From UHGV virus genome UHGV-0220142: a stretch of DNA of 10,913 nucleotides. One strand, written 5' to 3'. Positions 1-10,913 of this stretch are shown here, in pieces. Position 1 is the stretch's first letter, and every line of letters begins with the position of its first letter. Under the pieces are notes generated by a model, which was not told where the DNA came from, did no database searches, and saw only the letters and a program-made list of their open reading frames with translations. Made by a program: the position numbers and the translations under genes. Origin of the DNA: a virus.

Positions 1-692
1 GTATTATTAATGGAAACATTCGTTCATTAATTATCTCTGGTGCGGCGGGTATTGGTAAAACGTATTCTTTAGATAAAGCTTTGAATAAAGCAAATGATAT
101 TGGATACATTGAGTATAAAAGCATTAATGGTAAAATCTCTGGTATTGGTCTTTATGAACAGCTTTGGAATAATCGTGAAGAGAATTCTGTCCTTTTGATT
201 GATGATGTGGATGTTTTCTCTGATATGGACATTCTTAATCTTCTGAAAGCTGCTCTGGACACTGGAGAGACCCGTAAAGTCTGCTGGAGCACCGCATCTT
301 CTTACTTAGAAGAAAAAGGCATTGACCGTGAGTTTGAATTTAAAGGAACGATTGTTTTTATCACAAACGTTGACATTGACCGCGAATTAGACCGTGGTAC
401 TAAACTTGCTCCACATTTACAAGCATTAGTGTCCCGCTCAGTTTATTTGGATTTGGGTGTTCACACTAATGAAGAAATTATGGTCAGGGTTGAAGATGTT
501 ATTCTTTCAACTGACATGATGCAAAAGCGCGGTCTTTCTGATGAAGAAACTTATAAAGCATTATCATGGATGAAAGTCAATGTTAATCGTTTACGCAATG
601 TTTCACTGCGTACTGCTCTTTATCTTGCTGACTTTATTATGACCGACAAAAACGGTTGGGAAGAAATTGCTGAAACGGTATTATTAAAATGA
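1..692 (+). CDS. P-loop (AAA-like) ATPase, 5'-truncated by window edge; reading frame begins at position 3
   Basis: Open frame from the window start with no stop until TGA 690-692. Walker A GAAGIGKT (codons at 39-62), Walker-B-like hhhhDD in VLLIDDVD, and FITN sensor-1-like motif. The track start at 81 is a TTG inside the frame, not the true start. Confidence 0.7.
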   Translation, partial: IINGNIRSLIISGAAGIGKTYSLDKALNKANDIGYIEYKSINGKISGIGLYEQLWNNREENSVLLIDDVDVFSDMDILNLLKAALDTGETRKVCWSTASSYLEEKGIDREFEFKGTIVFITNVDIDRELDRGTKLAPHLQALVSRSVYLDLGVHTNEEIMVRVEDVILSTDMMQKRGLSDEETYKALSWMKVNVNRLRNVSLRTALYLADFIMTDKNGWEEIAETVLLK

Positions 693-1408
693 AAAAATAT
701 TTTACTATCTATAAAACTGAAATATTAAATTTAAAGACAGGTATTAAGAAATACTATTATGGTCGACATATAACTAATAACATCAATGATTCGTATGTTG
801 GTAGTGGAAATTATATAGAACGTGTAAAAGTGTCAAATGACCACATATTATCAAAAACGGTTTTAGAAGTTTTTGATAATTATGATAAAATGGTACAAGC
901 TGAAATATTATATATCATGGCAGGTAAATTGAAATATGGAAAAAACTGTGTTAACCTGTCATACGGGGGTGAAGGAGGAAAGGTTGCAGATGAAACTAGG
1001 ATAAAATGCAAAAAGCATTCTATAAATTTATGGAAAAATCCTAATCATATACAGCATATGAAGAAAAAGATGAAAGAGGTCACATCCACGCCGGAAGCTA
1101 AATTAAACACTTCAATAAAAACTTCGCAACGATATAAGGACCCAGTTTTTGTTAGAAAAGTTAGTAATATTATTAAAAAGAAACTAAGCAATCCTGTAGT
1201 AAAAGAAAAGCATATTAATGGAATTAAAGCTGCAAAGCGTTCTCATTTAACTATATGGCAATATGAAGATGAATTATTCGAGCTTTGGAAAGAAACTAAA
1301 TATGGATGGAGAAAATTTACAAAGGAAGCTATAAAACACGGGTATCCAAATGAACCGTATCGTAGTATGGTATCAACTTTTCAGAAAAGACATTTAGAAG
1401 AATCCTAA
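689..1408 (+). CDS. GIY-YIG family homing endonuclease (seg-like), 239 aa
   Basis: N-terminal TIY-x-YYG, conserved Arg (YIERV), VFDN, Glu (QAEIL) and Asn (CVNLSYGGEGG) in the spacing expected for a GIY-YIG catalytic domain. Basic C-terminal half with periodic K/S/P-rich repeats resembling NUMOD-type DNA-binding modules. Start ATG overlaps the upstream stop (ATGA at 689-692) and has no SD, suggesting translational coupling. Confidence 0.8.
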   Translation: MKKYFTIYKTEILNLKTGIKKYYYGRHITNNINDSYVGSGNYIERVKVSNDHILSKTVLEVFDNYDKMVQAEILYIMAGKLKYGKNCVNLSYGGEGGKVADETRIKCKKHSINLWKNPNHIQHMKKKMKEVTSTPEAKLNTSIKTSQRYKDPVFVRKVSNIIKKKLSNPVVKEKHINGIKAAKRSHLTIWQYEDELFELWKETKYGWRKFTKEAIKHGYPNEPYRSMVSTFQKRHLEES

Positions 1409-1490
1409 GACAAAAAGGCAGTTCAGAAATAGATTATATGGACTGCCATTAAAAAGATGACTAGAATTAAACTGGTAAATGGAGGTAAAG

Positions 1491-1793
1491 ATGTTATACT
1501 CAAAAGCTCGTGAAATTTATGAAACTAAAATTAAAGACGCGGTTCATCAGTTCGCAACGACAATGCGTTGGACAAATGATTGGGAGTATTCAAAAAATCA
1601 TAAGAAGCCCCTGGTGACAAGAAAGGCTCATATGTTAGTGTTAATAGACCGTGAGCAGATTAAAGCCCGAGAAGCCCTCCAGAATCATAAAAAGGCTGCC
1701 TTTGAATGGTTTATGGATAACACTGCTCCTGAGACTAAGAAAGCAGTGAGCGCGTGGTTCAGTGGAAAAAATTGTGAAAGAAGTTTCTTTTAG
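1491..1793 (+). CDS. hypothetical small basic protein, 100 aa
   Basis: ORF-track frame 1479-1793. ATG 1491 is preferred because GGAGG (1481-1485) sits 5 nt upstream of it, whereas ATG 1479 has no SD. Confidence 0.6.
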   Translation: MLYSKAREIYETKIKDAVHQFATTMRWTNDWEYSKNHKKPLVTRKAHMLVLIDREQIKAREALQNHKKAAFEWFMDNTAPETKKAVSAWFSGKNCERSFF

Positions 1794-1795
1794 TG

Positions 1796-1825
1796 GTTTA
1801 CAAGACTGTTCCTCTGTGGTACTAT
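1796..1825 (+). promoter_or_regulatory. promoter-like element: GTTTAC, 18-bp spacer, TGg-TACTAT
   Basis: GTTTAC at 1796-1801 and extended -10 TGGTACTAT at 1817-1825. Same architecture as the elements at 4767 and 7417. The -10 hexamer is imperfect. Confidence 0.35.
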
Positions 1826-1850
1826 ACAACTATCAACTACGGAGGAACAG
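1806..1850 (+). promoter_or_regulatory. RNA stem-loop sequestering the Shine-Dalgarno of the gene at 1854
   Basis: Perfect 9-bp inverted repeat CTGTTCCTC (1806-1814) / GAGGAACAG (1842-1850), extendable by 6 further pairs with two G-U wobbles (1815-1820 with 1836-1841). The 3' arm contains the SD GGAGG (1841-1845). Confidence 0.5.
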
Positions 1851-1853
1851 AAA

Positions 1854-2381
1854 ATGAATGCTAAAGATATTTTCAACTTGGTAAATTACAACGATGGTAA
1901 ATTTAAATCTGAAGCACAAAGCAAGTTCTTTAATGACATCTCAATTGGAGGTGAAATCACGGTTGATGGAGGACAAATTTATAAATCTCGTTGGAATTGG
2001 ATTGTTATCATCGATGAGATTGGTATTGTAGAAATTTACAAAAATACGAATAAAAATCGTACATTACGCTGGTCTCGTGATACTAACGAACAGTACAAAA
2101 AGGATAAAGCATCTAAGTTATCTCGTGTAACTCAAGAAGATATTAAGTTCATCAAGAAAGATATTTTGATGTATGATAACTTAATTGCTGAAGAGCAAGC
2201 TGTTATTGATAAATTTGATGAGATTAAAGCTTCTCGTGAAATTCCTGATTTTATGAAAGAATCAGTAAATGAACGATACACTCTCATTTCAGAGCGTATT
2301 GAAACTTACAAAAAGCAAAGAGCTGAACGCCAGAATACTCTTCGGAAATTTGAAGAACGGTTAAAGACGGTACTCGCATAA
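1854..2381 (+). CDS. hypothetical protein, 175 aa
   Basis: Long ORF with ATG 1854 preceded by GGAGGA (1841-1846). Codon usage is consistent with neighbouring genes. No recognisable motif. Confidence 0.7.
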   Translation: MNAKDIFNLVNYNDGKFKSEAQSKFFNDISIGGEITVDGGQIYKSRWNWIVIIDEIGIVEIYKNTNKNRTLRWSRDTNEQYKKDKASKLSRVTQEDIKFIKKDILMYDNLIAEEQAVIDKFDEIKASREIPDFMKESVNERYTLISERIETYKKQRAERQNTLRKFEERLKTVLA

Positions 2382-2383
2382 CC

Positions 2384-2407
2384 GCTTTATACCAAGGATG
2401 GTATAAT
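2384..2407 (+). promoter_or_regulatory. middle-promoter-like element: MotA-box-like GCTTTA plus extended -10 TGgTATAAT
   Basis: cGCTTTA at 2383-2389, 12 bp, then TATAAT at 2402-2407 preceded by TGG. There is no sigma70-like -35 at the expected position, which fits the T4 middle-promoter arrangement. Confidence 0.4.
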
Positions 2408-2436
2408 GGTTCTAAGCCCTTTTAATTGAGATTATT

Positions 2437-2844
2437 ATGAAACAGTTGATAATTAAAAGATTGAATTTATTGATATGTTGTTTATGTGTAGTAGTTGCAT
2501 ATGGTTATTACGCAATTAATGATTATATGCATTATAAAGATTATGATGTTACTGTAGTTAATACCCTTACAGGAACTCAAGGAAAGGGGTCTAGTTTATC
2601 GTTTATTGCTGTATATGAACTCAAAGACGGTTATAGATTTAGCGAATATATTTCACCGGAGATGTATTCTTCAATAGAAAAAGGCGATAATATTACTGTA
2701 AGTTTACGTCCTTTCGACGTAAAACAGACATGGTTTGATAATATTGTCTGGTTCTTTGGAATGGTATTAGTTCAATCTGTGTGTGGTGCTTATATAGTCT
2801 TTTCCATCATATTCTGCGTATTTAGTAAAATTGAAATTGAGTGA
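2437..2844 (+). CDS. small membrane protein with two predicted transmembrane segments, 135 aa
   Basis: Hydrophobic stretch LNLLICCLCVVVAYGYYAI near the N-terminus and FFGMVLVQSVCGAYIVFSIIFCVF near the C-terminus, flanking a ~75-aa polar domain. Preceded by a promoter-like element at 2384-2407. Confidence 0.65.
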   Translation: MKQLIIKRLNLLICCLCVVVAYGYYAINDYMHYKDYDVTVVNTLTGTQGKGSSLSFIAVYELKDGYRFSEYISPEMYSSIEKGDNITVSLRPFDVKQTWFDNIVWFFGMVLVQSVCGAYIVFSIIFCVFSKIEIE

Positions 2845-2851
2845 GGAAAAT

Positions 2852-3739
2852 ATGTCAGTAGTAATTAATAATGTCAATACAGTAATTAAATCTTTAGTTA
2901 ATAAAAAAATGAATGAATGGACTGTACTTCGTCGTGGAGAGCCAGATAAATTTTTTCATAGATTTAACCCAACTTTGGATTTGAATGTTATTGACAGAGA
3001 TGTTCATGCTGAAATTTTAGATAAGTTTAAAGTTGATATTGGATTTGGATTAGAAAAACATTTACAGCGAACAAACGGGTCTGGAATGAGTTTATCTAAT
3101 CGCATCATGAAAGCCCTTAATAAAATTGGAGCGTTGTCTCGTATTAATGCGAGTGAAATCCTTCGCAATTATAATAAAGGATATGACCTTTATGGTCGAC
3201 TAATGCCGAAATTATCATTCGATCAAATGATTGCGGATTTGTGGGAAAATCAACGACGATTATTAGCATTAGGCGCTCGATTAGCTAAAGGTCTAGATAA
3301 ACAAATGATTTTTAAGACCAATAATACAGAAGACCTTAAATGCTTTAAATTTAGTATTCGCGGCGATGATTATTATATCAGAGCTCGCTCTACAGATTAT
3401 GTTAATATGGGGCATCATCTCTGTTTAGCTTTTGAAGTTTTAAAAGAAGCTGGAACGTTAGAATATTCATCTGGTGCTAAATGTCCGATTGGTTCAAGTT
3501 GTATTTTAATTTATCGCCCGGATGAATCCAGTTCAACTAAATTGCCTACAAAACCTGTACCAGTTCGTAGTAACGAAAAACATTCTGAACAAATTGATTA
3601 TTTTAATAAACAGATTGAAGAGCTAAATATTTCTATTCAACAATATGACGATGAAATTTTCAGACTATCTGGATTGAGTAGTAAAGCTAAATCTGAGCGT
3701 GAAAAGTTAATTAAAATTGTCGATTTACTTAAATCTTAA
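2852..3739 (+). CDS. hypothetical protein with C-terminal coiled-coil-like tail, 295 aa
   Basis: Track ORF 2831-3739 begins at TTG. ATG 2852 is preferred because GAGG (2843-2846) precedes it. C-terminal ~40 aa show a heptad-like pattern (QIEELNISIQQYDDEIFRL...EREKLIKIVDLLKS). Confidence 0.7.
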   Translation: MSVVINNVNTVIKSLVNKKMNEWTVLRRGEPDKFFHRFNPTLDLNVIDRDVHAEILDKFKVDIGFGLEKHLQRTNGSGMSLSNRIMKALNKIGALSRINASEILRNYNKGYDLYGRLMPKLSFDQMIADLWENQRRLLALGARLAKGLDKQMIFKTNNTEDLKCFKFSIRGDDYYIRARSTDYVNMGHHLCLAFEVLKEAGTLEYSSGAKCPIGSSCILIYRPDESSSTKLPTKPVPVRSNEKHSEQIDYFNKQIEELNISIQQYDDEIFRLSGLSSKAKSEREKLIKIVDLLKS

Positions 3740-3747
3740 GGAACACC

Positions 3748-4767
3748 ATGAAAACTCGTTCTCAAATTGAAGATATGGTTCGTAATGCCAGCTATACTCG
3801 TAATGTTATGACATTTTTGTGCCAAAATAATTTAGACCCTGATAGAGTTAATAGTTCCATTCACTTTAAGTATATGAATAGCAGTGAATGGTTACGTCAT
3901 TTTAGTAAAGCGGGGTATATTACACAAATGACTGCTCGTGAGCAGCTCACCGATTTCTGTAAAACTATTGATTATAAAAATCCTCTATTTGTTCAAGGTG
4001 TTGGTCAGAGTAAGGTCGATTTATCATCTGGATTTTTCAATCCAAATCATTATCGTATTGAATGGAGATTTATTGCTCTATTCCGTAAACAATTAAAGCA
4101 AATTTTGTCAACAGCTAGTCGATTAAAAGGTTCTGACATTAATTTAAAGAACCTGAAATTTGATGGTTATACTCTTCAGATGGAAGTAAGACCATTAAAA
4201 GAAAATAACAGAACTGCACGAATTAGCTTTAAACCTAATACAAAAAATTCTCTTTCAATTTGCGAATGCCTTAAATCGCAGTTGACAGAAGCATTTAAGT
4301 ATATGGATGTTGTTGCCGCTGTTCAGTCTAAGATTTTACCTCGTTTTGAGCGATTTAAATTAGACACAACAACATATGAACTTGATATGATCGTTTCATT
4401 TAAATACGATTTTTTGAGAAAGGACGAAGCCCCGCAAGAGAAAAAGCAAGAAGTGCAAGATAACTTAAATTTATCTAATTACTTATCAAACGATCCTAAA
4501 TTTTGGATGTATAGTTCAGGCAATAATGATGCATGGAAATTTAATAAAGTGAATTTTCTTCCTATTGAAAATCCGAGTCTTAAACCTGTTGAAAAATGGC
4601 ACGCGGATGCGATTGAGAAGTCTCTTAAGGCAGTAGATGATGAACTTGTTAAAGCAACAAATGAAGTGCTAGAAGCTGAAAAGATGCTAGAAAAAGCTCA
4701 AGAAAAAGTCAAAAATCTCACGAAGCAACGTTCTAAACTGAACAATGCACTAAATGCACTAAACTAG
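3748..4767 (+). CDS. hypothetical protein with C-terminal coiled-coil-like tail, 339 aa
   Basis: ATG 3748 preceded by AAGGA. C-terminal ~50 aa are strongly heptad-like (LKAVDDELVKATNEVLEAEKMLEKAQEKVKNLTKQRSKLNNALNALN). Shares a K(Y/I)MDVV motif with the next gene. Confidence 0.75.
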   Translation: MKTRSQIEDMVRNASYTRNVMTFLCQNNLDPDRVNSSIHFKYMNSSEWLRHFSKAGYITQMTAREQLTDFCKTIDYKNPLFVQGVGQSKVDLSSGFFNPNHYRIEWRFIALFRKQLKQILSTASRLKGSDINLKNLKFDGYTLQMEVRPLKENNRTARISFKPNTKNSLSICECLKSQLTEAFKYMDVVAAVQSKILPRFERFKLDTTTYELDMIVSFKYDFLRKDEAPQEKKQEVQDNLNLSNYLSNDPKFWMYSSGNNDAWKFNKVNFLPIENPSLKPVEKWHADAIEKSLKAVDDELVKATNEVLEAEKMLEKAQEKVKNLTKQRSKLNNALNALN

Positions 4768-4796
4768 TTTACTTCGCCACAAGGATGTGGTATAAT
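4767..4796 (+). promoter_or_regulatory. early-promoter-like element: GTTTAC, 18-bp spacer, TGg-TATAAT
   Basis: GTTTAC 4767-4772 (overlapping the upstream stop codon), TGG 4788-4790, TATAAT 4791-4796. Lies 30-60 nt upstream of the SD and ATG of the 4825 gene. Confidence 0.45.
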
Positions 4797-4824
4797 GTTC
4801 TTACTTTCTACTGAGGAGATTAAT

Positions 4825-5751
4825 ATGACTCGTAAACATTATATTGATTATTTTGACAGTCTTATTACTAAACACCGCAATTATCAGATCGGACACAGAG
4901 CAGTAATCAATAATATTCTTCGTGATTTCCTTCAGTATGTTGGCCAGGAAAATCATATCTGTAAAGATACTCAGAACGCTTATTCTCATTCGTTAGGCAA
5001 TTTGCTTGAATGGTTTAAACGTTCTCGTATGTTATCTTCTACTGTAGCTCGTGATAACATTAAAAACTTTATGAAGCCGAGCTTCATTAAAACTGCGACA
5101 TCTATAACTGATTTGGTTGAATTTACTATTATTAACGATGTTAAAAAGACCCATTTGGCTGATTGGTTATCTACCATTCCTGAAACTAAATTTGCTAATA
5201 AATTTGCTTGTCAATTCAATACTCAAGTGAATATGCTTTTTAAGCATGCTCGCAAACTGTTTACCGCGGGCGATGACCGTACAAATACAGTTCATGTTAA
5301 GGACTGGGTTATTGCTGATGAAGTAACACACAAGCCAGGTGGTTCATCAGTATTAATTAATATCCAGGTTCCTTATTATTACTCGCGTAATCTTGGCACC
5401 ATGACAGCTAAAGAAATTAATAAGCACAACAAAACTATTCGTTCGTTGTCTTATAAACTCCGCATGATGTTAAAAATTATGGACGTAGTGGAAATGTATG
5501 ACGAAACCGAAGATAATGGTTCAATGTTATACAGTTCACGCATTCTAATTAAACTGAAGAACCCTAATACATATAAGACAGTTGTAAAAGAGCCTAAAGT
5601 AGAAAAGGTTGATAATTTGAGTGAAGAACGTGAATATCTCAATGCCCGTTTGATTGAAGTTGAAGCCCAAATTGCAGAACACACCAAATTGTTAAAAGCT
5701 CTTAATGCAAAAGCAAATGGTTTACGTAATGCTATTGAGGTATTGAAATGA
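4825..5751 (+). CDS. hypothetical protein with C-terminal coiled-coil-like tail, 308 aa
   Basis: Track ORF starts at ATG 4795, which lies inside the TATAAT of a promoter-like element. ATG 4825 is preferred because GAGGAG (4813-4818) sits 6 nt upstream. C-terminal tail is heptad-like ([44 protein letters not shown]). Confidence 0.7.
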   Translation: MTRKHYIDYFDSLITKHRNYQIGHRAVINNILRDFLQYVGQENHICKDTQNAYSHSLGNLLEWFKRSRMLSSTVARDNIKNFMKPSFIKTATSITDLVEFTIINDVKKTHLADWLSTIPETKFANKFACQFNTQVNMLFKHARKLFTAGDDRTNTVHVKDWVIADEVTHKPGGSSVLINIQVPYYYSRNLGTMTAKEINKHNKTIRSLSYKLRMMLKIMDVVEMYDETEDNGSMLYSSRILIKLKNPNTYKTVVKEPKVEKVDNLSEEREYLNARLIEVEAQIAEHTKLLKALNAKANGLRNAIEVLK

Positions 5752-6137
5752 AAAAGCGTTTATTAGAAGACATTGCAGCTTCAAGTAATTCTAGTCTAAT
5801 TAAAATTATTATGGCTGGTGAAGAAGACGATTTGGAAATGCGTGGAAAGATTCACGGCTGCGACGATTTAGATTTTAAACCTCCAGCATGGGATGCTATT
5901 ATGGCTATGGTTGAACGACGTGAAAGAGCTTCTAAAAACGTTCCTAATTGCCCTGAATGCGGTACTGAACAAGTTCAATTGATTAACTGGCGTAAACCAG
6001 AGCTTGAATATAAATGCCGTCAATGTAAACATAAATTCAGTAAGCATGCTCCGGAAATGGTTAAATTGCCTGACTCTACTGAGTTCTTTAAAGAACTTGT
6101 GAGTGTTCAACCAATGCCTAATAATATTTTGGATTAA
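5748..6137 (+). CDS. hypothetical zinc-ribbon protein, 129 aa
   Basis: ATGA stop/start overlap with the upstream gene at 5748-5751. Two Cys pairs, CPEC and CRQC, separated by 17 residues (C4 zinc-ribbon-like). Confidence 0.65.
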
Positions 6138-6139
6138 AA

Positions 6140-6382
6140 ATGACCAAGCGTAAAGAATATATGGAGACTGCTGAAAAGGCAGTCCGTGAATTAGCAATAG
6201 CGTATTATAATGAACATGGTAAATTTCCTGATAGATACAGCGTGCTTAAATCTGCTTTAACTCGTTCATATAAAAATATGCTATCAGAAGTAAGTGATAT
6301 TATATACAAACATAAAGAACAAACGGGCCAAAGTCTTGATTACGACGAGACTTTTAAACAAGTACTAGGAATTAAGGAATAA
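6140..6382 (+). CDS. hypothetical protein, 80 aa
   Basis: ORF starts 2 nt after the upstream stop and ends 1 nt before the nrdC start. Tight packing supports it being coding. Confidence 0.6.
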
Positions 6383-6383
6383 T

Positions 6384-6647
6384 ATGTTTAAAGTATATGG
6401 TTATGATAGCAACATCCATAAATGTGTGTATTGCGATAATGCAAAACGTCTTTTGACTGTGAAGAAACAGCCGTTTGAATTTATCAACATTATGCCGGAA
6501 AAAGGTGTTTTTGATGATGAAAAAATCGCTGAGCTTCTGACTAAACTAGGCCGTGATACTCAAATTGGTTTGACAATGCCACAAGTATTTGCTCCTGATG
6601 GAAGTCATATTGGTGGATTTGACCAACTGCGAGAATATTTTAAATGA
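6384..6647 (+). CDS. nrdC: phage glutaredoxin/thioredoxin (NrdC), 87 aa
   Basis: 87-aa product with CVYC redox-active dithiol near the N-terminus (MFKVYGYDSNIHKCVYCDNAK...) and glutaredoxin-like length. Sequence matches my recollection of T4 NrdC. AAGGA SD 5 nt upstream of the ATG. Confidence 0.9.
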   Translation: MFKVYGYDSNIHKCVYCDNAKRLLTVKKQPFEFINIMPEKGVFDDEKIAELLTKLGRDTQIGLTMPQVFAPDGSHIGGFDQLREYFK

Positions 6648-6859
6648 TGCTCGAAGGAACTGACTATATTCACGATTACCGCGGAAGCGCGGTATATGTA
6701 GGTGATGAAGTTGCAGTTTATTATGGGTATGGAACTTTGATGACAGCAAAGGTTATTCAAATTAAAAATAATCGTGCTAAACTTGAAGTTTATTATTCTA
6801 ACGGTGAAAAGTCTATTTCTAAGTGGAAATACGGCGATTGTATGGTCAAACTGGGGTAA
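6644..6859 (+). CDS. hypothetical small protein, 71 aa
   Basis: ATGA overlap with the nrdC stop. Sits where T4 has the small 49.x ORFs between nrdC and pin. Confidence 0.55.
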   Translation: MMLEGTDYIHDYRGSAVYVGDEVAVYYGYGTLMTAKVIQIKNNRAKLEVYYSNGEKSISKWKYGDCMVKLG

Positions 6860-6861
6860 AT

Positions 6862-7032
6862 ATGATTTACGATATTAATGTAGCAAGAGCTCCGTCAATG
6901 GTTACTATTCCTGCTGAAGAACTAGATCGTCTTCATAAAATTGAAGAACTTCTTTGGGAAATTGAATCTGATTTGCCATCAGGATTAGAATCCTGGATTG
7001 ATTATGAAGAACTTAATAAATTGCGAAATTAA
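6862..7032 (+). CDS. hypothetical small acidic protein, 56 aa
   Basis: Track ORF starts at GTG 6823, inside the upstream gene. The in-frame ATG 6862, 2 nt after the upstream stop, is the more plausible start. Confidence 0.5.
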   Translation: MIYDINVARAPSMVTIPAEELDRLHKIEELLWEIESDLPSGLESWIDYEELNKLRN

Positions 7033-7042
7033 TTGGTGAAAA

Positions 7043-7363
7043 ATGACTATTGAAAATAAATTAGATGTTGATGCAGTTCTGAGCGAAATTATTGAAGACC
7101 ATGATGCATTTTCAGAAAACTATGATTTCGATTTTTCCGATTATCTTAAACCTGTCGAAATAGAAGACTGGGTGCAAGACGGCAAATGTCAATATCGTCA
7201 GTGTGTTTATTTTAGTCCAAAACATAATGTACATGTTTCCGTAAATGAATCTCGCTCAGGTTCTTACCATTCTGATTGGTATTATGCAGTTCCGACTGTT
7301 GAACTAGTCGAGCCCCGTGAACGTGTAGTAACTCAGACAATACGAGAATGGATTACGCTATAA
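7043..7363 (+). CDS. hypothetical acidic protein, 106 aa
   Basis: ORF with ATG 7043 preceded by GGTGA. No recognisable motif. Confidence 0.55.
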   Translation: MTIENKLDVDAVLSEIIEDHDAFSENYDFDFSDYLKPVEIEDWVQDGKCQYRQCVYFSPKHNVHVSVNESRSGSYHSDWYYAVPTVELVEPRERVVTQTIREWITL

Positions 7364-7416
7364 AACCCTGGTGGGCGGCTAGATGGGAAACTGTAGAGCC
7401 AGAGCCGGAAGAACCG

Positions 7417-7446
7417 GTTTACACTGATGAAGAAACATTATATAAT
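7417..7446 (+). promoter_or_regulatory. early-promoter-like element: GTTTAC, 18-bp spacer, TATAAT
   Basis: GTTTAC 7417-7422 and TATAAT 7441-7446, in the gap upstream of the pin-like gene. Confidence 0.4.
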
Positions 7447-7486
7447 GAACCAACGATAAATGACTTAATTGATATGGAGATGGGAC

Positions 7487-7972
7487 ATGATTACAGTAGA
7501 TAAGTGGTTTAGAATTAATCGTGCTGATACAGGGCTGTGTAATTACTGGCCGGAACTTAGTGCAGGTACTGTCTTTAAAGTTCGTGAACTTGCAAAAGAA
7601 TGTGAAGATGATATAGAGCCTGACACTGGAATTATTGAAATTGAACTTTCTGATGGAAAGATTATTAACATCTACGATAAGCCAATTACGTATTGGTGCT
7701 TGTGGAATACTGAATCAGTAGAAAATGGCGAAATTGAAGAAGTTGTAGATAGAACTAATCAAGTTGTTCAGAAGCCTAAAGCTGATTTTCAAGGTGAACG
7801 TATTTCATACGCATTAGCTAAATTAGCTGCACAAGAAAATAACGATGGCTATGAAGGAAATTTGATGCAAGCTGCGGCAGAATATATTGAATGGCTTGAA
7901 ACCCAAATTTCTTTTTCTGACCAAAAGATTCGGCAATATAAGCGATTGAATCAAATGTTTTACAATACTTGA
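7487..7972 (+). CDS. pin: candidate Pin-like protein (inhibitor of host Lon protease), 161 aa; assigned by position and size only
   Basis: Track ORF starts at TTG 7469. ATG 7487 with GGAGA 7 nt upstream gives a 161-aa product. It lies immediately upstream of gene 49, as pin does in T4. The sequence itself was not recognised. Confidence 0.45.
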   Translation: MITVDKWFRINRADTGLCNYWPELSAGTVFKVRELAKECEDDIEPDTGIIEIELSDGKIINIYDKPITYWCLWNTESVENGEIEEVVDRTNQVVQKPKADFQGERISYALAKLAAQENNDGYEGNLMQAAAEYIEWLETQISFSDQKIRQYKRLNQMFYNT

Positions 7973-7976
7973 AAAT

Positions 7977-7984
7977 AATAAATA
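7977..7984 (+). promoter_or_regulatory. late-promoter-like octamer AATAAATA, one mismatch from TATAAATA
   Basis: Sits just upstream of, and overlapping, the 5' arm of the gene 49 hairpin, so a transcript starting a few nt downstream would lack the 5' arm. Confidence 0.25.
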
Positions 7985-8015
7985 CCCTTATCTATTTAAG
8001 GTAAGGGTTTTATTA
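7984..8015 (+). terminator. stem-loop followed by T-rich run; candidate intrinsic terminator and/or SD-sequestering hairpin before gene 49
   Basis: ACCCTTA (7984-7990) pairs with TAAGGGT (8002-8008), extendable to ~10 bp with a 5-nt loop ATTTA, followed by TTTTATT. The 3' arm contains the gene 49 SD AAGGG (8003-8007), 7 nt before ATG 8015. Confidence 0.45.
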
Positions 8016-8488
8016 TGTTATTGACTGGCAAATTATATAAAGAAGAAAAACAGAAATTTTATGATGCACAAAACGGTAAATGCTTAATTTGCCAACGAGA
8101 ACTAAATCCTGACGTTCAAGCTAATCACCTCGACCATGACCATGAATTAAATGGACCAAAAGCAGGAAAAGTACGTGGATTGCTTTGTAATCTCTGCAAT
8201 GCCACAGAAGGTCAAATGAAGCACAAATTTAATCGTTCTGGCTTAAAGGGACAAGGTGTTGATTATCTTGAATGGTTAGAAAATTTACTTACTTATTTAA
8301 AATCCGATTACACCCAAAATAATATTCACCCTAACTTCGTTGGAGATAAATCAAAGGAATTTTCTCGTTTAGGAAAAGAGGAAATGATGGCCGAGATGCT
8401 TCAAAGAGGATTTGAATATAATGAATCTGACACCAAAACACAATTAATAGCTTCATTTAAGAAGCAGCTTAGAAAGAGTTTAAAATGA
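8015..8488 (+). CDS. 49: recombination endonuclease VII (Holliday-junction resolvase), 157 aa
   Basis: 157-aa product with zinc-binding Cys pairs CLIC and CNLC and the HLDHDH catalytic His/Asp cluster. N-terminal sequence MLLTGKLYKEEKQKFYDAQNGK matches my recollection of T4 gp49. Stop overlaps the nrdD start (ATGA 8485-8488). Confidence 0.92.
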   Translation: MLLTGKLYKEEKQKFYDAQNGKCLICQRELNPDVQANHLDHDHELNGPKAGKVRGLLCNLCNATEGQMKHKFNRSGLKGQGVDYLEWLENLLTYLKSDYTQNNIHPNFVGDKSKEFSRLGKEEMMAEMLQRGFEYNESDTKTQLIASFKKQLRKSLK

Positions 8489-10302
8489 CAATTGAAAAAG
8501 AAATTGAAGGATTGATTCATAAAACTAATAAAGACCTTTTAAACGAGAATGCTAATAAAGATTCTCGTGTTTTTCCAACTCAACGGGACCTTATGGCTGG
8601 TATTGTGTCTAAACACATTGCCAAAAATATGGTCCCGTCTTTTATTATGAAAGCGCATGAAAGCGGAATTATTCATTTTCATGATATTGATTATTCCCCT
8701 GCTCTTCCATTTACTAATTGCTGTTTAGTAGATTTAAAAGGAATGCTTGAGAACGGATTTAAGCTTGGTAATGCACAGATTGAAACTCCTAAATCAATTG
8801 GCGTTGCTACTGCAATTATGGCACAAATTACTGCACAGGTTGCTTCTCACCAATACGGCGGAACGACTTTTGCGAATGTAGATAAAGTACTTTCTCCTTA
8901 TGTTAAACGCACCTATGCAAAACATATTGAGGATGCAGAAAAATGGCAAATCGCTGATGCGTTGAATTATGCTCAATCTAAAACAGAAAAAGATGTATAC
9001 GATGCATTCCAAGCTTATGAATATGAAGTAAATACTCTCTTTAGTTCAAACGGACAGACTCCTTTTGTAACAATTACATTTGGTACGGGAACTGACTGGA
9101 CTGAACGAATGATTCAGAAAGCAATTCTGAAAAATCGTATTAAAGGTCTTGGTCGTGATGGGATAACTCCTATTTTCCCTAAGCTTGTTATGTTCGTTGA
9201 AGAAGGTGTTAATCTTTATAAAGACGATCCGAACTATGATATTAAGCAGCTTGCTTTAGAGTGCGCAAGCAAAAGAATGTATCCTGACATCATTTCGGCT
9301 AAGAACAATAAAGCTATCACCGGCTCATCTATTCCTGTTTCTCCAATGGGTTGCCGTAGTTTCTTGAGCGTATGGAAAGATTCGACTGGTAATGAAATTC
9401 TTGATGGACGTAATAATCTCGGTGTTGTAACACTGAATCTTCCTCGCATTGCGTTAGATTCTTATATTGGAACACAGTTCAATGAACAGAAATTTGCCGA
9501 ATTGTTCGATGAACGAATGGATTTGTGTTTTGAAGCTTTGATGTGTAGAATTAGTTCCTTAAAAGGAGTTAAAGCGACTGTTGCTCCTATTCTTTACCAA
9601 GAAGGTGCATTCGGGGTCCGTCTTAAACCTGATGACGACATAATTGAGTTATTTAAAAACGGTAGAAGTTCAGTGTCTTTAGGATACATTGGTATTCACG
9701 AATTGAATATTCTTGTCGGTCGTGATATTGGACGAGAAATTTTAACTAAGATGAATGCTCATCTTAAACAGTGGACTGAAAGAACCGGATTTGCTTTTAG
9801 TTTATATTCGACTCCTGCTGAAAACCTTTGCTATCGCTTCTGTAAACTCGATACAGAAAAATATGGAAGCGTAAAAGATGTTACTGATAAAGGCTGGTAC
9901 ACTAACAGTTTCCACGTTTCAGTAGAAGAAAATATTACTCCGTTTGAAAAGATTTCTCGTGAAGCGCCATATCATTTCATTGCGACAGGTGGTCACATTT
10001 CTTATGTTGAACTTCCTGATATGAAAAATAACTTAAAGGGTCTTGAGGCCGTATGGGATTATGCTGCACAACATTTAGATTATTTTGGTGTTAATATGCC
10101 AGTAGATAAATGTTTTACATGTGGAAGTACCCATGAAATGACTCCTACTGAAAACGGATTTGTTTGTTCTATTTGTGGAGAAACTGATCCTAAAAAGATG
10201 AACACCATAAGAAGAACATGCGGATATCTTGGAACTCCTAGCGTTGTTCCATGGAATTTAGGTAAAATGAAAGAAATGGTAAAACGAGTAAAACATGCAT
10301 AG
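8485..10302 (+). CDS. nrdD: anaerobic ribonucleoside-triphosphate reductase (class III RNR), 605 aa, uninterrupted
   Basis: C-terminal glycyl-radical motif RRTCGYLG, preceding C4 zinc ribbon (CFTCGS...CSICGE) and overall length typical of NrdD. Single continuous ORF. Confidence 0.95.
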   Translation: MTIEKEIEGLIHKTNKDLLNENANKDSRVFPTQRDLMAGIVSKHIAKNMVPSFIMKAHESGIIHFHDIDYSPALPFTNCCLVDLKGMLENGFKLGNAQIETPKSIGVATAIMAQITAQVASHQYGGTTFANVDKVLSPYVKRTYAKHIEDAEKWQIADALNYAQSKTEKDVYDAFQAYEYEVNTLFSSNGQTPFVTITFGTGTDWTERMIQKAILKNRIKGLGRDGITPIFPKLVMFVEEGVNLYKDDPNYDIKQLALECASKRMYPDIISAKNNKAITGSSIPVSPMGCRSFLSVWKDSTGNEILDGRNNLGVVTLNLPRIALDSYIGTQFNEQKFAELFDERMDLCFEALMCRISSLKGVKATVAPILYQEGAFGVRLKPDDDIIELFKNGRSSVSLGYIGIHELNILVGRDIGREILTKMNAHLKQWTERTGFAFSLYSTPAENLCYRFCKLDTEKYGSVKDVTDKGWYTNSFHVSVEENITPFEKISREAPYHFIATGGHISYVELPDMKNNLKGLEAVWDYAAQHLDYFGVNMPVDKCFTCGSTHEMTPTENGFVCSICGETDPKKMNTIRRTCGYLGTPSVVPWNLGKMKEMVKRVKHA

Positions 10303-10913
10303 GTATTATATAATTTATAAAATAACAAATATAATTAATTCAAAGGAATATATCGGTGCGCATAGCACCGATAACATAAATGACGGTTATATGGGATCAG
10401 GAACATTGATTCGTGCTGCTTTATTAAAATATGGTAGAAAAAATTTTTATAAAGAAATTTTATATGTTTTTGATAATGAAAAGCAAATGTATGATAAAGA
10501 AGCTGAACTTGTAACTGAAGAGTATTGTCTAAAAGAAAATACATATAATATTAAACCTGGTGGAAAAGGTGGAACTGCCTATGAACAGACACTTGAACAT
10601 CGCCACAAAAATAGTTTAGCAAATAAAGGTAAAAAGAGAACAGAAGAAACTAAAATAGCTATTTCACGTGCTTTAAAGAAATATAAACGTACGCCAGAGC
10701 ATCAAGCAAATTTAAATAAAGCCGTAAGCATAGCTATGAAGCGAAAAGATGTTAGAAGTAAATTAGCTGGAGAGCGGTCTGAGAAAGATAAATTATCTAT
10801 ATCAAACGGTGTTAAAAAATATTACAATTCTTTGAGTGAAGAAGAACGCGAACTTCATCGCAAGCGAATTATTGAAGGTAAAAAGAATTCTCCCATGTCA
10901 TTGGAATCTAGAC
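10295..10913 (+). CDS. GIY-YIG family homing endonuclease, 3'-truncated by window edge; sits in a slot comparable to mobC/segH of T4-like phages
   Basis: Not in the ORF track because no stop is reached. ATG 10295 overlaps the last 8 nt of nrdD. The frame stays open to the window end. Motifs: YIIYKITN...YIG, conserved Arg (LIRAAL), VFDN, Glu (KEAELV), Asn (TYNIKPGGKGG). NUMOD3-like repeat KKRTEETKIAISRALK. Clear paralog of the 689-1408 gene (shared NINDxYxGSG, VFDN, AE(I/L)L). Confidence 0.8.
   Translation, partial: MHRYYIIYKITNIINSKEYIGAHSTDNINDGYMGSGTLIRAALLKYGRKNFYKEILYVFDNEKQMYDKEAELVTEEYCLKENTYNIKPGGKGGTAYEQTLEHRHKNSLANKGKKRTEETKIAISRALKKYKRTPEHQANLNKAVSIAMKRKDVRSKLAGERSEKDKLSISNGVKKYYNSLSEEERELHRKRIIEGKKNSPMSLESR

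Follow-up and report, generated by a model that had tools for sequence, protein, structure and literature searches.

What are the two endonuclease genes that bracket the nrdC-49-nrdD region of the virus genome UHGV-0220142, how are they related to each other, and are they mobile? The stretch analyzed here (the window; 10,913 nt, one strand) is a 10.9-kb segment of a Tequatrovirus (T4-like coliphage) genome, with its + strand along early transcription, and an earlier sequence-only reading of it had proposed two paralogous and probably mobile GIY-YIG homing endonuclease genes. Both open reading frames (ORFs) were found at the coordinates given in that reading, the first at 689-1408 (239 aa, full) and the second from 10295 to the window end (206 codons, open to the window edge). 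The results supported its interpretation as essentially right and as a description of known biology: with a probability of about 0.88, we read the locus as two independently acquired, free-standing Seg-family (GIY-YIG) homing endonuclease cassettes, namely segH and the seg-like gene of the RB32ORF093c type, referred to below as seg1. Gene names were set by comparison with the annotated records of RB6, T6, T4, RB14, and EC121.

Identity and family relationship of seg1 and segH

The second gene (10295..10913, window end, + strand) is segH. The window holds the first 206 of its 276 codons, which encode the GIY-YIG catalytic domain, a basic linker and the first NUMOD3 residues, and these 206 codons showed 97% amino acid identity with SegH of T6 (AXN58115) and 99% with the RB6 copy, the full-length protein being 276 aa in both phages. 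At the DNA level, segH matched 73 records, 70 of them at 98-99.8% identity, and it was 97.9% identical to AY262137 (T6, 'segH: SegH'); the original segH entries for RB3 and LZ2, AY262138 and AY262139, are matched too, by the segH-linked nrdD tail. The segH genes of T6, RB3, and LZ2 (AY262137-AY262139) share with the window gene the nrdD/nrdG slot, the 8-nt overlap with the nrdD stop and the linked alternative nrdD tail, and the window gene differs from them in nothing substantial, apart from ending at codon 206. Most of NUMOD3, the whole I-TevI-like helix-turn-helix and the nrdG junction lie beyond that point; full-length T6 SegH matches NUMOD3 with 26.6 bits at aa 200-228, above the Pfam cutoff, and I-TevI_DNA-bd weakly at aa 226-273. 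SegH activity and homing were reportedly described by Sandegren, Nord and Sjoberg in Nucleic Acids Research (NAR) in 2005. In the review PMC2988022, Sandegren 2005 is the reference given for nrdD/nrdG being targeted by seg and mob endonucleases. In the RB6 record (KM606996; L001, 13764-14594), segH is labelled 'segD' and its start is put at an internal ATG, which is an annotation artefact.

The sequence-only reading had placed this gene in the mobC slot at the 3′ end of nrdD, and both the SegH identity and the comparison of the T6 and T4 loci bear this out. The nrdD/nrdG slot holds the HNH gene mobC in T4, and nrdD directly abuts nrdG in RB14. T4 MobC thus shares the slot with segH but belongs to an unrelated nuclease family (HNH). 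The first letters of T4 mobC, ATGAATTATGACAGAATCTAT, nearly repeat the opening ~20 nt of nrdG, so that mobC appears to have been inserted just inside nrdG, duplicating the nrdG start and leaving the T4-type nrdD tail intact.

The first gene (689..1408, + strand; 239 aa, complete) is of the 'RB32ORF093c' type, annotated as 'seg-like putative site-specific intron-like DNA endonuclease'. RB32ORF093c-type genes have the identical length (239 aa), position and ATGA overlap, and no differences were found, i.e., they are the same gene as seg1. The gene is also present between nrdC.10 and nrdC.9 in T6, RB14, RB51, RB3, RB5, RB6, RB7, AR1, and others, and its DNA was 97.6-100% identical across 67 records, 52 of them at 99% or more. 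The gene that precedes it had been taken for nrdC.11, but its open frame to 690-692 and its T6 match identify it as nrdC.10; this puts seg1 at the nrdC.10/nrdC.9 junction, with nrdC itself ~5 kb downstream.

seg1 is laid out as a catalytic domain at ~aa 1-99 (nt 689-985), a helical linker and a C-terminal three-helix module at ~aa 185-238 (nt 1241-1402). An AlphaFold2 model of the protein (pLDDT 78) gave an N-terminal domain of beta-beta-alpha-beta-alpha order, which is the GIY-YIG fold. The C-terminal three-helix module has no name, and seg1 had no match to NUMOD1, NUMOD3 or I-TevI_DNA-bd at E≤10. A word-indexed protein search with seg1 found two clusters only; the wider family became visible by an exhaustive HMMER search, which gave 1419 representative relatives at E≤1e-3, only two of them at E≤1e-30. 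When seg1 was aligned with 52 relatives (n = 53), the columns Y8, G25, Y36, G38, G40, E72, and N89 were invariant, and Y23 and the histidine H27 were each at least 90% conserved. Pfam matches among these 53 members were SegE_GIY-YIG (13/53), PF01541 GIY-YIG (5/53) and NUMOD3 (16/53). The 53-sequence profile matched I-TevI (1LN0) weakly (E = 0.22), with the tyrosines, E75 and N90 in register, and phmmer searches of PDB sequences with seg1 and SegH matched no nuclease.

Relatives of seg1 occur beyond the close T4-like phages. A more distant T4-like contig, with an nrdC.10 of 85% identity, has a full-length homolog (44% identical) in the seg1 slot, again starting in an ATGA overlap, and a homolog of 31% identity with the same C-terminal module adjoins tk in another T4-like genome. 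One homolog (L006, 5872-6594) was considered as a decayed copy, since its gene call (P0002) seemed N-terminally truncated, and was rejected as such: the DNA holds a full-length ORF from the ATGA overlap, and the true start, an ATG overlapping the stop of nrdC.10, lies 43 codons ahead of the called one.

The two proteins are significantly similar: a BLASTP alignment of 159 aa scored 51 bits with 31% identity (E = 1e-12). The phrog_314 family, 'homing endonuclease', is hit by each of them, at 1.8e-30 (seg1) and 6e-58 (SegH). The similarity could, in principle, be a chance or low-complexity artefact of AT-rich DNA and the ORFs not real genes, given that both regions are AT-rich (GC ~0.30) and that Pfam is silent for seg1. 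We regard this as practically refuted by the pairwise E-value, by the 1419 relatives and by the recovered GIY-YIG fold, and each ORF is conserved, with an annotation, in dozens of genomes.

It had been proposed that a shared motif string made the two proteins paralogs. They are paralogs broadly, as members of the Seg family, but not as a duplicated pair. The motif string is present in both but is not specific to them, being equally present in SegA-E; it is a signature of the whole T-even Seg family, which reads IY..YxG.H.T.NxNDxYxGSG..E..N in the two window ORFs. In an all-against-all BLASTP comparison of seg1, SegH, T4 SegA-G, I-TevI, and I-TevII, SegH fell within the tight SegA-E cluster (87-113 bits, 31-53% identity). 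seg1 was the outlier, with 51 bits to SegH, 52 to SegB, 41-52 to SegA, and 42 to SegE and SegF; its scores against SegA-E (34-52 bits) are distant, yet reciprocal and significant. Alignment to the Seg proteins and I-TevI/II thus placed both proteins in the Seg family, without making them each other's nearest relatives. Since SegH is much nearer to SegA-E than to seg1, the two genes point to independent acquisitions rather than to a local duplication.

The tyrosines of the GIY and YIG motifs, the helix Glu and the Asn are kept in both proteins. The 'GIY' and 'YIG' motifs are TIY (6-8) and YYG (23-25) in seg1 and IIY (6-8) and YIG (19-21) in SegH, aligned with Y6, Y17, and G19 of I-TevI, and the metal-binding Glu and Asn (I-TevI E75 and N90) correspond to E72 and N89 of seg1 and to E69 and N85 of SegH in the same columns; MAFFT sets the conserved Glu one column off, and the profile-to-1LN0 alignment sets it on E75. 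T4 SegA-SegE have the catalytic signature Y...YxG.H.T.NxxDGYxGSG...E...N..GG.GG in common with the window pair and, like it, are free-standing, oriented as the neighboring genes, and present or absent among relatives. Compared with them, SegH is close and seg1 is distant, with a beta-hairpin longer by 4-5 residues and the unnamed helical C-terminal module in place of the NUMOD-type modules of SegH and some seg1 relatives. I-TevI (T4 td, PDB 1LN0) is intron-encoded, unlike the window pair, and its sequence similarity to the pair, which has no alignable R27/H31 segment, is marginal.

Cassette boundaries and alternative alleles

Both genes start within the end of the preceding gene, as the sequence-only reading had noted: the seg1 ATG (689-691) overlaps the TGA of nrdC.10 (690-692) in an ATGA, and the segH ATG (10295-10297) precedes the nrdD TAG (10300-10302) in an 8-nt overlap. 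Comparison with phages lacking the genes showed that the cassettes extend further. Both have clean boundaries and begin within the upstream host gene, to which they supply a diverged substitute C-terminal tail. The left edge of the seg1 cassette (672..692, + strand) is a substitute nrdC.10 tail, ETVLLK*, that differs from EC121 at 12 of 21 nt, although the peptide is nearly the same as the EVTLLK* of seg1-less EC121; the tail of seg1-less T4 is a frameshifted TGYSSEINS*. The heterology spans ~672-1408 with flanks ~97-98% identical, and the alignment of the window, T6 and RB14 against EC121 and T4 showed homology to be back directly after the seg1 stop codon. The right flank (1409..1490, + strand) is the intergenic stretch before nrdC.9 and is common to seg1-plus and seg1-less phages. 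A conserved inverted repeat just 3′ of seg1, GGCAGT (1417-1422) and ACTGCC (1442-1447), likewise occurs in seg1-less phages.

The left edge of the segH cassette (10234..10302, + strand) is an alternative nrdD C-terminal tail, TPSVVPWNLGKMKEMVKRVKHA, directly after the CGYLG motif, in place of the NPNERGFNLGKNKEIMHRVKHQ of segH-less phages. Over the last 22 nrdD codons, 40/69 nt (58%) are identical to segH-less RB14, compared with 290/300 (96.7%) just upstream. Among phage records, 81 have the segH-type tail and 73 have segH, so that tail and gene track each other almost exactly. The nrdD tail may be donor-lineage DNA that is always carried along because it is too diverged for strand invasion; alternatively, the carrier may be protected by it as a recoded target. 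SegH reportedly also cleaves DNA that already has segH (Sandegren 2005), in which case the tail would be hitch-hiking donor sequence and not a determinant of immunity.

Presence/absence polymorphism among near-identical relatives is clear for both genes when empty sites are counted. Of 503 records that match the nrdC.10/nrdC.9 junction, 434 have it intact and empty, and seg1 is present in 67; of 760 records for the nrdD-nrdG junction, 561 have the two genes directly and intactly joined, and segH is present in 73. All four combinations of seg1 and segH exist, i.e., both genes in T6, seg1 alone in RB14, segH alone in EC121, and neither in T4. The GC content of seg1 and segH is ~0.30 (segH 0.306) against 0.36-0.37 in the flanks (nrdD 0.366).

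Two further alleles document decay and exchange at the nrdD/nrdG slot. In phage vB_vPM_PD112 (NC_054928; L008, 1500-1810), segH is a relic: ~600 nt of its interior are deleted at a short direct repeat, AAATATG, so that its first ~131 nt are joined to its last ~100 nt; the locus is without annotation in the record. In Shigella phage BCPShso_001 (PV295201; L009, 13167-13960), a segH-type nrdD tail is fused at the 10-nt CATGCATAGG to the end of a T4-type tail followed by mobC, and this chimera indicates that segH and mobC cassettes replace one another at this slot. The occurrence of CATGCATAGG in both the segH start and the T4-type nrdD tail was considered as positional homology and rejected, as the two copies are 13 nt out of register; it was therefore treated as microhomology used in the chimera.

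Evidence for and against mobility

The proposed course of events would be that of homing. In a mixed infection, the enzyme would make a double-strand break in the co-infecting phage near the empty site, and recombinational repair from the endonuclease-bearing genome would copy the cassette in, together with its own diverged version of the C-terminal codons of the upstream gene. For seg1 we infer both cleavage and homing, and for both genes the position of the cleavage site; for SegH, mobility and a cleavage-site location have reportedly been published. Among carriers, the cassettes were slightly more conserved than their flanks (98.9% vs. 96.5-98.0% and 98.8% vs. 97.0%; 4-6 genomes). A carrier-specific flanking haplotype, the mark of a co-conversion tract, was not evident in the ~130 nt on either side of seg1, nor in the DNA preceding the nrdD tail.

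Several points weigh against reading both genes as active homing cassettes. The excess of cassette conservation over the flanks is small and is based on only those 4-6 genomes. For seg1, no study of cleavage, homing or function was found in the searchable literature; seg1 alone is without a Pfam or NCBIfam match, even at E≤10; and a Foldseek search of PDB with the full-length seg1 model found nothing. Finally, R27 of I-TevI has no alignable counterpart in seg1 or SegH. This last point has an explanation in the family, as R27 is unalignable in both proteins because the Seg clade, SegA-F included, has a 9-residue gap there, and the Seg proteins carry H-x-T...ND.Y.GSG in place of the R27 segment. 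Table 1 of the review marks SegA, SegB, SegC, SegE, and SegF as active (PMC2988022), and since these five carry the gap, the gap alone is no argument for inactivity.

Alternatively, seg1 could be a no longer mobile or domesticated nuclease, or an inactive relic, vertically inherited and repeatedly lost. The lack of any experimental record on seg1 in the searchable literature fits this, as do its position as a Seg-family outlier, with a GIY-YIG hairpin 4-5 residues longer and a non-NUMOD C-terminus, and the divergent same-slot homolog in a distant relative, which could reflect long vertical residence. We nevertheless consider it unlikely. The seg1 ORF is full length, retains all conserved family residues and is found in 67 genomes at 97.6-100% nucleotide identity; it is scattered over mosaic backbones in every combination with segH; and it shows nothing like the decay seen in the PD112 segH relic. 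The reading of two independently acquired homing cassettes accordingly remains the preferred one for seg1 as well as for segH.

The expression signals around the two genes are sparse. The T4 late promoter TATAAATA was found nowhere in the window, and sigma-70-like promoter and terminator scans of the window gave matches at background level only. No strong Shine-Dalgarno sequence precedes the seg1 or the segH ATG, unlike the neighboring genes. Several T4 seg and mob genes have been described as promoter-less and translationally coupled (PMC2988022), and the missing promoter and weak Shine-Dalgarno sequences of the window genes fit that arrangement. seg1 and segH are thus probably translated at a low level via coupling to the upstream gene.

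The nrdC-nrdD interval and what the two cassettes mean

A megablast search with the window matched 1074 phage records, 450 of them with at least 80% window coverage. The closest were RB6, RB7, RB9, and RB3, each at 97% identity, and no record identical to the window was among the matches. The gene order agrees with the T6 and RB6 annotation. The window opens with the 3′ part of nrdC.10 (1..692, frame open 3-692, + strand), i.e., its last 229 codons and the TGA at 690-692, assigned by the T6 nrdC.10 match and the RB6, T6, and RB14 annotation; this part contains a Walker-A motif, GAAGIGKT. 3′ of seg1 follow nrdC.9, nrdC.8, nrdC.7, nrdC.6, and nrdC.5 in this order, then a variant of nrdC.3, nrdC.2, nrdC.1, and nrdC (6384-6647). 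After nrdC come two small RB32-type ORFs, 49.2, 49.1, and pin, and after pin gene 49 for endonuclease VII (8015-8488). The nrdD gene (8485..10302, + strand) encodes an anaerobic ribonucleotide reductase of 605 aa (Pfam NRDD 1.1e-171, Gly_radical 6.9e-25) and is intron-less. The 1035-nt group I intron of T4 nrdD, with I-TevII, would sit at ~9020-9023 of the window, so that a third endonuclease, too, has a vacant homing site there.

The interval between the two cassettes is itself variable. The window is without nrdC.4, its nrdC.3 variant is only 61% identical to T4 nrdC.3, and 49.3 is replaced. Positions 4795-6000 are 62-86% identical to T4 and T6 and 92-100% identical to RB6, RB14, and EC121 (RB6 78% over 5801-6000), a pattern that marks this block, by sequence, as a mosaic replacement. 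A small ORF at 6823-7032 is 89% identical to EcT6_00080 of T6, which, judged by its position, appears to be the 'Gp49.2' of T6 that PMC13096335 reports to inhibit the OLD defence system. A T4-type 49.2 lies at 7043-7363 of the window; T6 has no T4-type 49.2.

This mosaic structure raises the question whether the two endonucleases act mainly as break-makers at the edges of a variable nrdC.1-nrdC.10/49.x island, promoting its en-bloc exchange or amplification. The strongly mosaic interval between them (the 4800-6000 block, the absent nrdC.4 and the replaced 49.3) is consistent with such a role, as are the amplification in T6 of the gp49.1-nrdC.1 interval, shown to depend on SegB (PMC13096335), and the nuclease genes that PMC10448857 places at boundaries of genetic exchange between phages. 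The boundaries of the mosaic block, however, do not coincide with seg1 or segH, and the published amplification needed SegB, which is neither of the two; we hold this to be quite improbable as their main role. It is to a similarly small degree plausible, on the present analysis, that the two enzymes, by cutting at either end of the ~9-kb hypervariable nrdC.9-nrdD interval, could drive en-bloc exchange or segmental amplification of the island between co-infecting phages. If so, the island would include the ORF at 6823-7032, whose T6 counterpart is, from its position, apparently the reported OLD inhibitor, and the process would parallel that shown for SegB in T6.

With the locus read as two independent Seg-family cassettes, both genes are already known, segH having been characterised and seg1 long annotated, and the presence of two such cassettes is ordinary for T4-like phages, so that the finding has little importance beyond correct annotation. 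Within the family, the recoded tails of the upstream genes point to where the target-site divergence lies, and the segH deletion relic and the segH-tail/mobC chimera are natural intermediates of decay and replacement. If homing by seg1 holds true, seg1 would be a ninth functional Seg enzyme with a previously unnamed, repeated three-helix DNA-binding module, and the repeatable C-terminal helical module of the seg1 family may represent a DNA-binding cassette that is new among GIY-YIG endonucleases.

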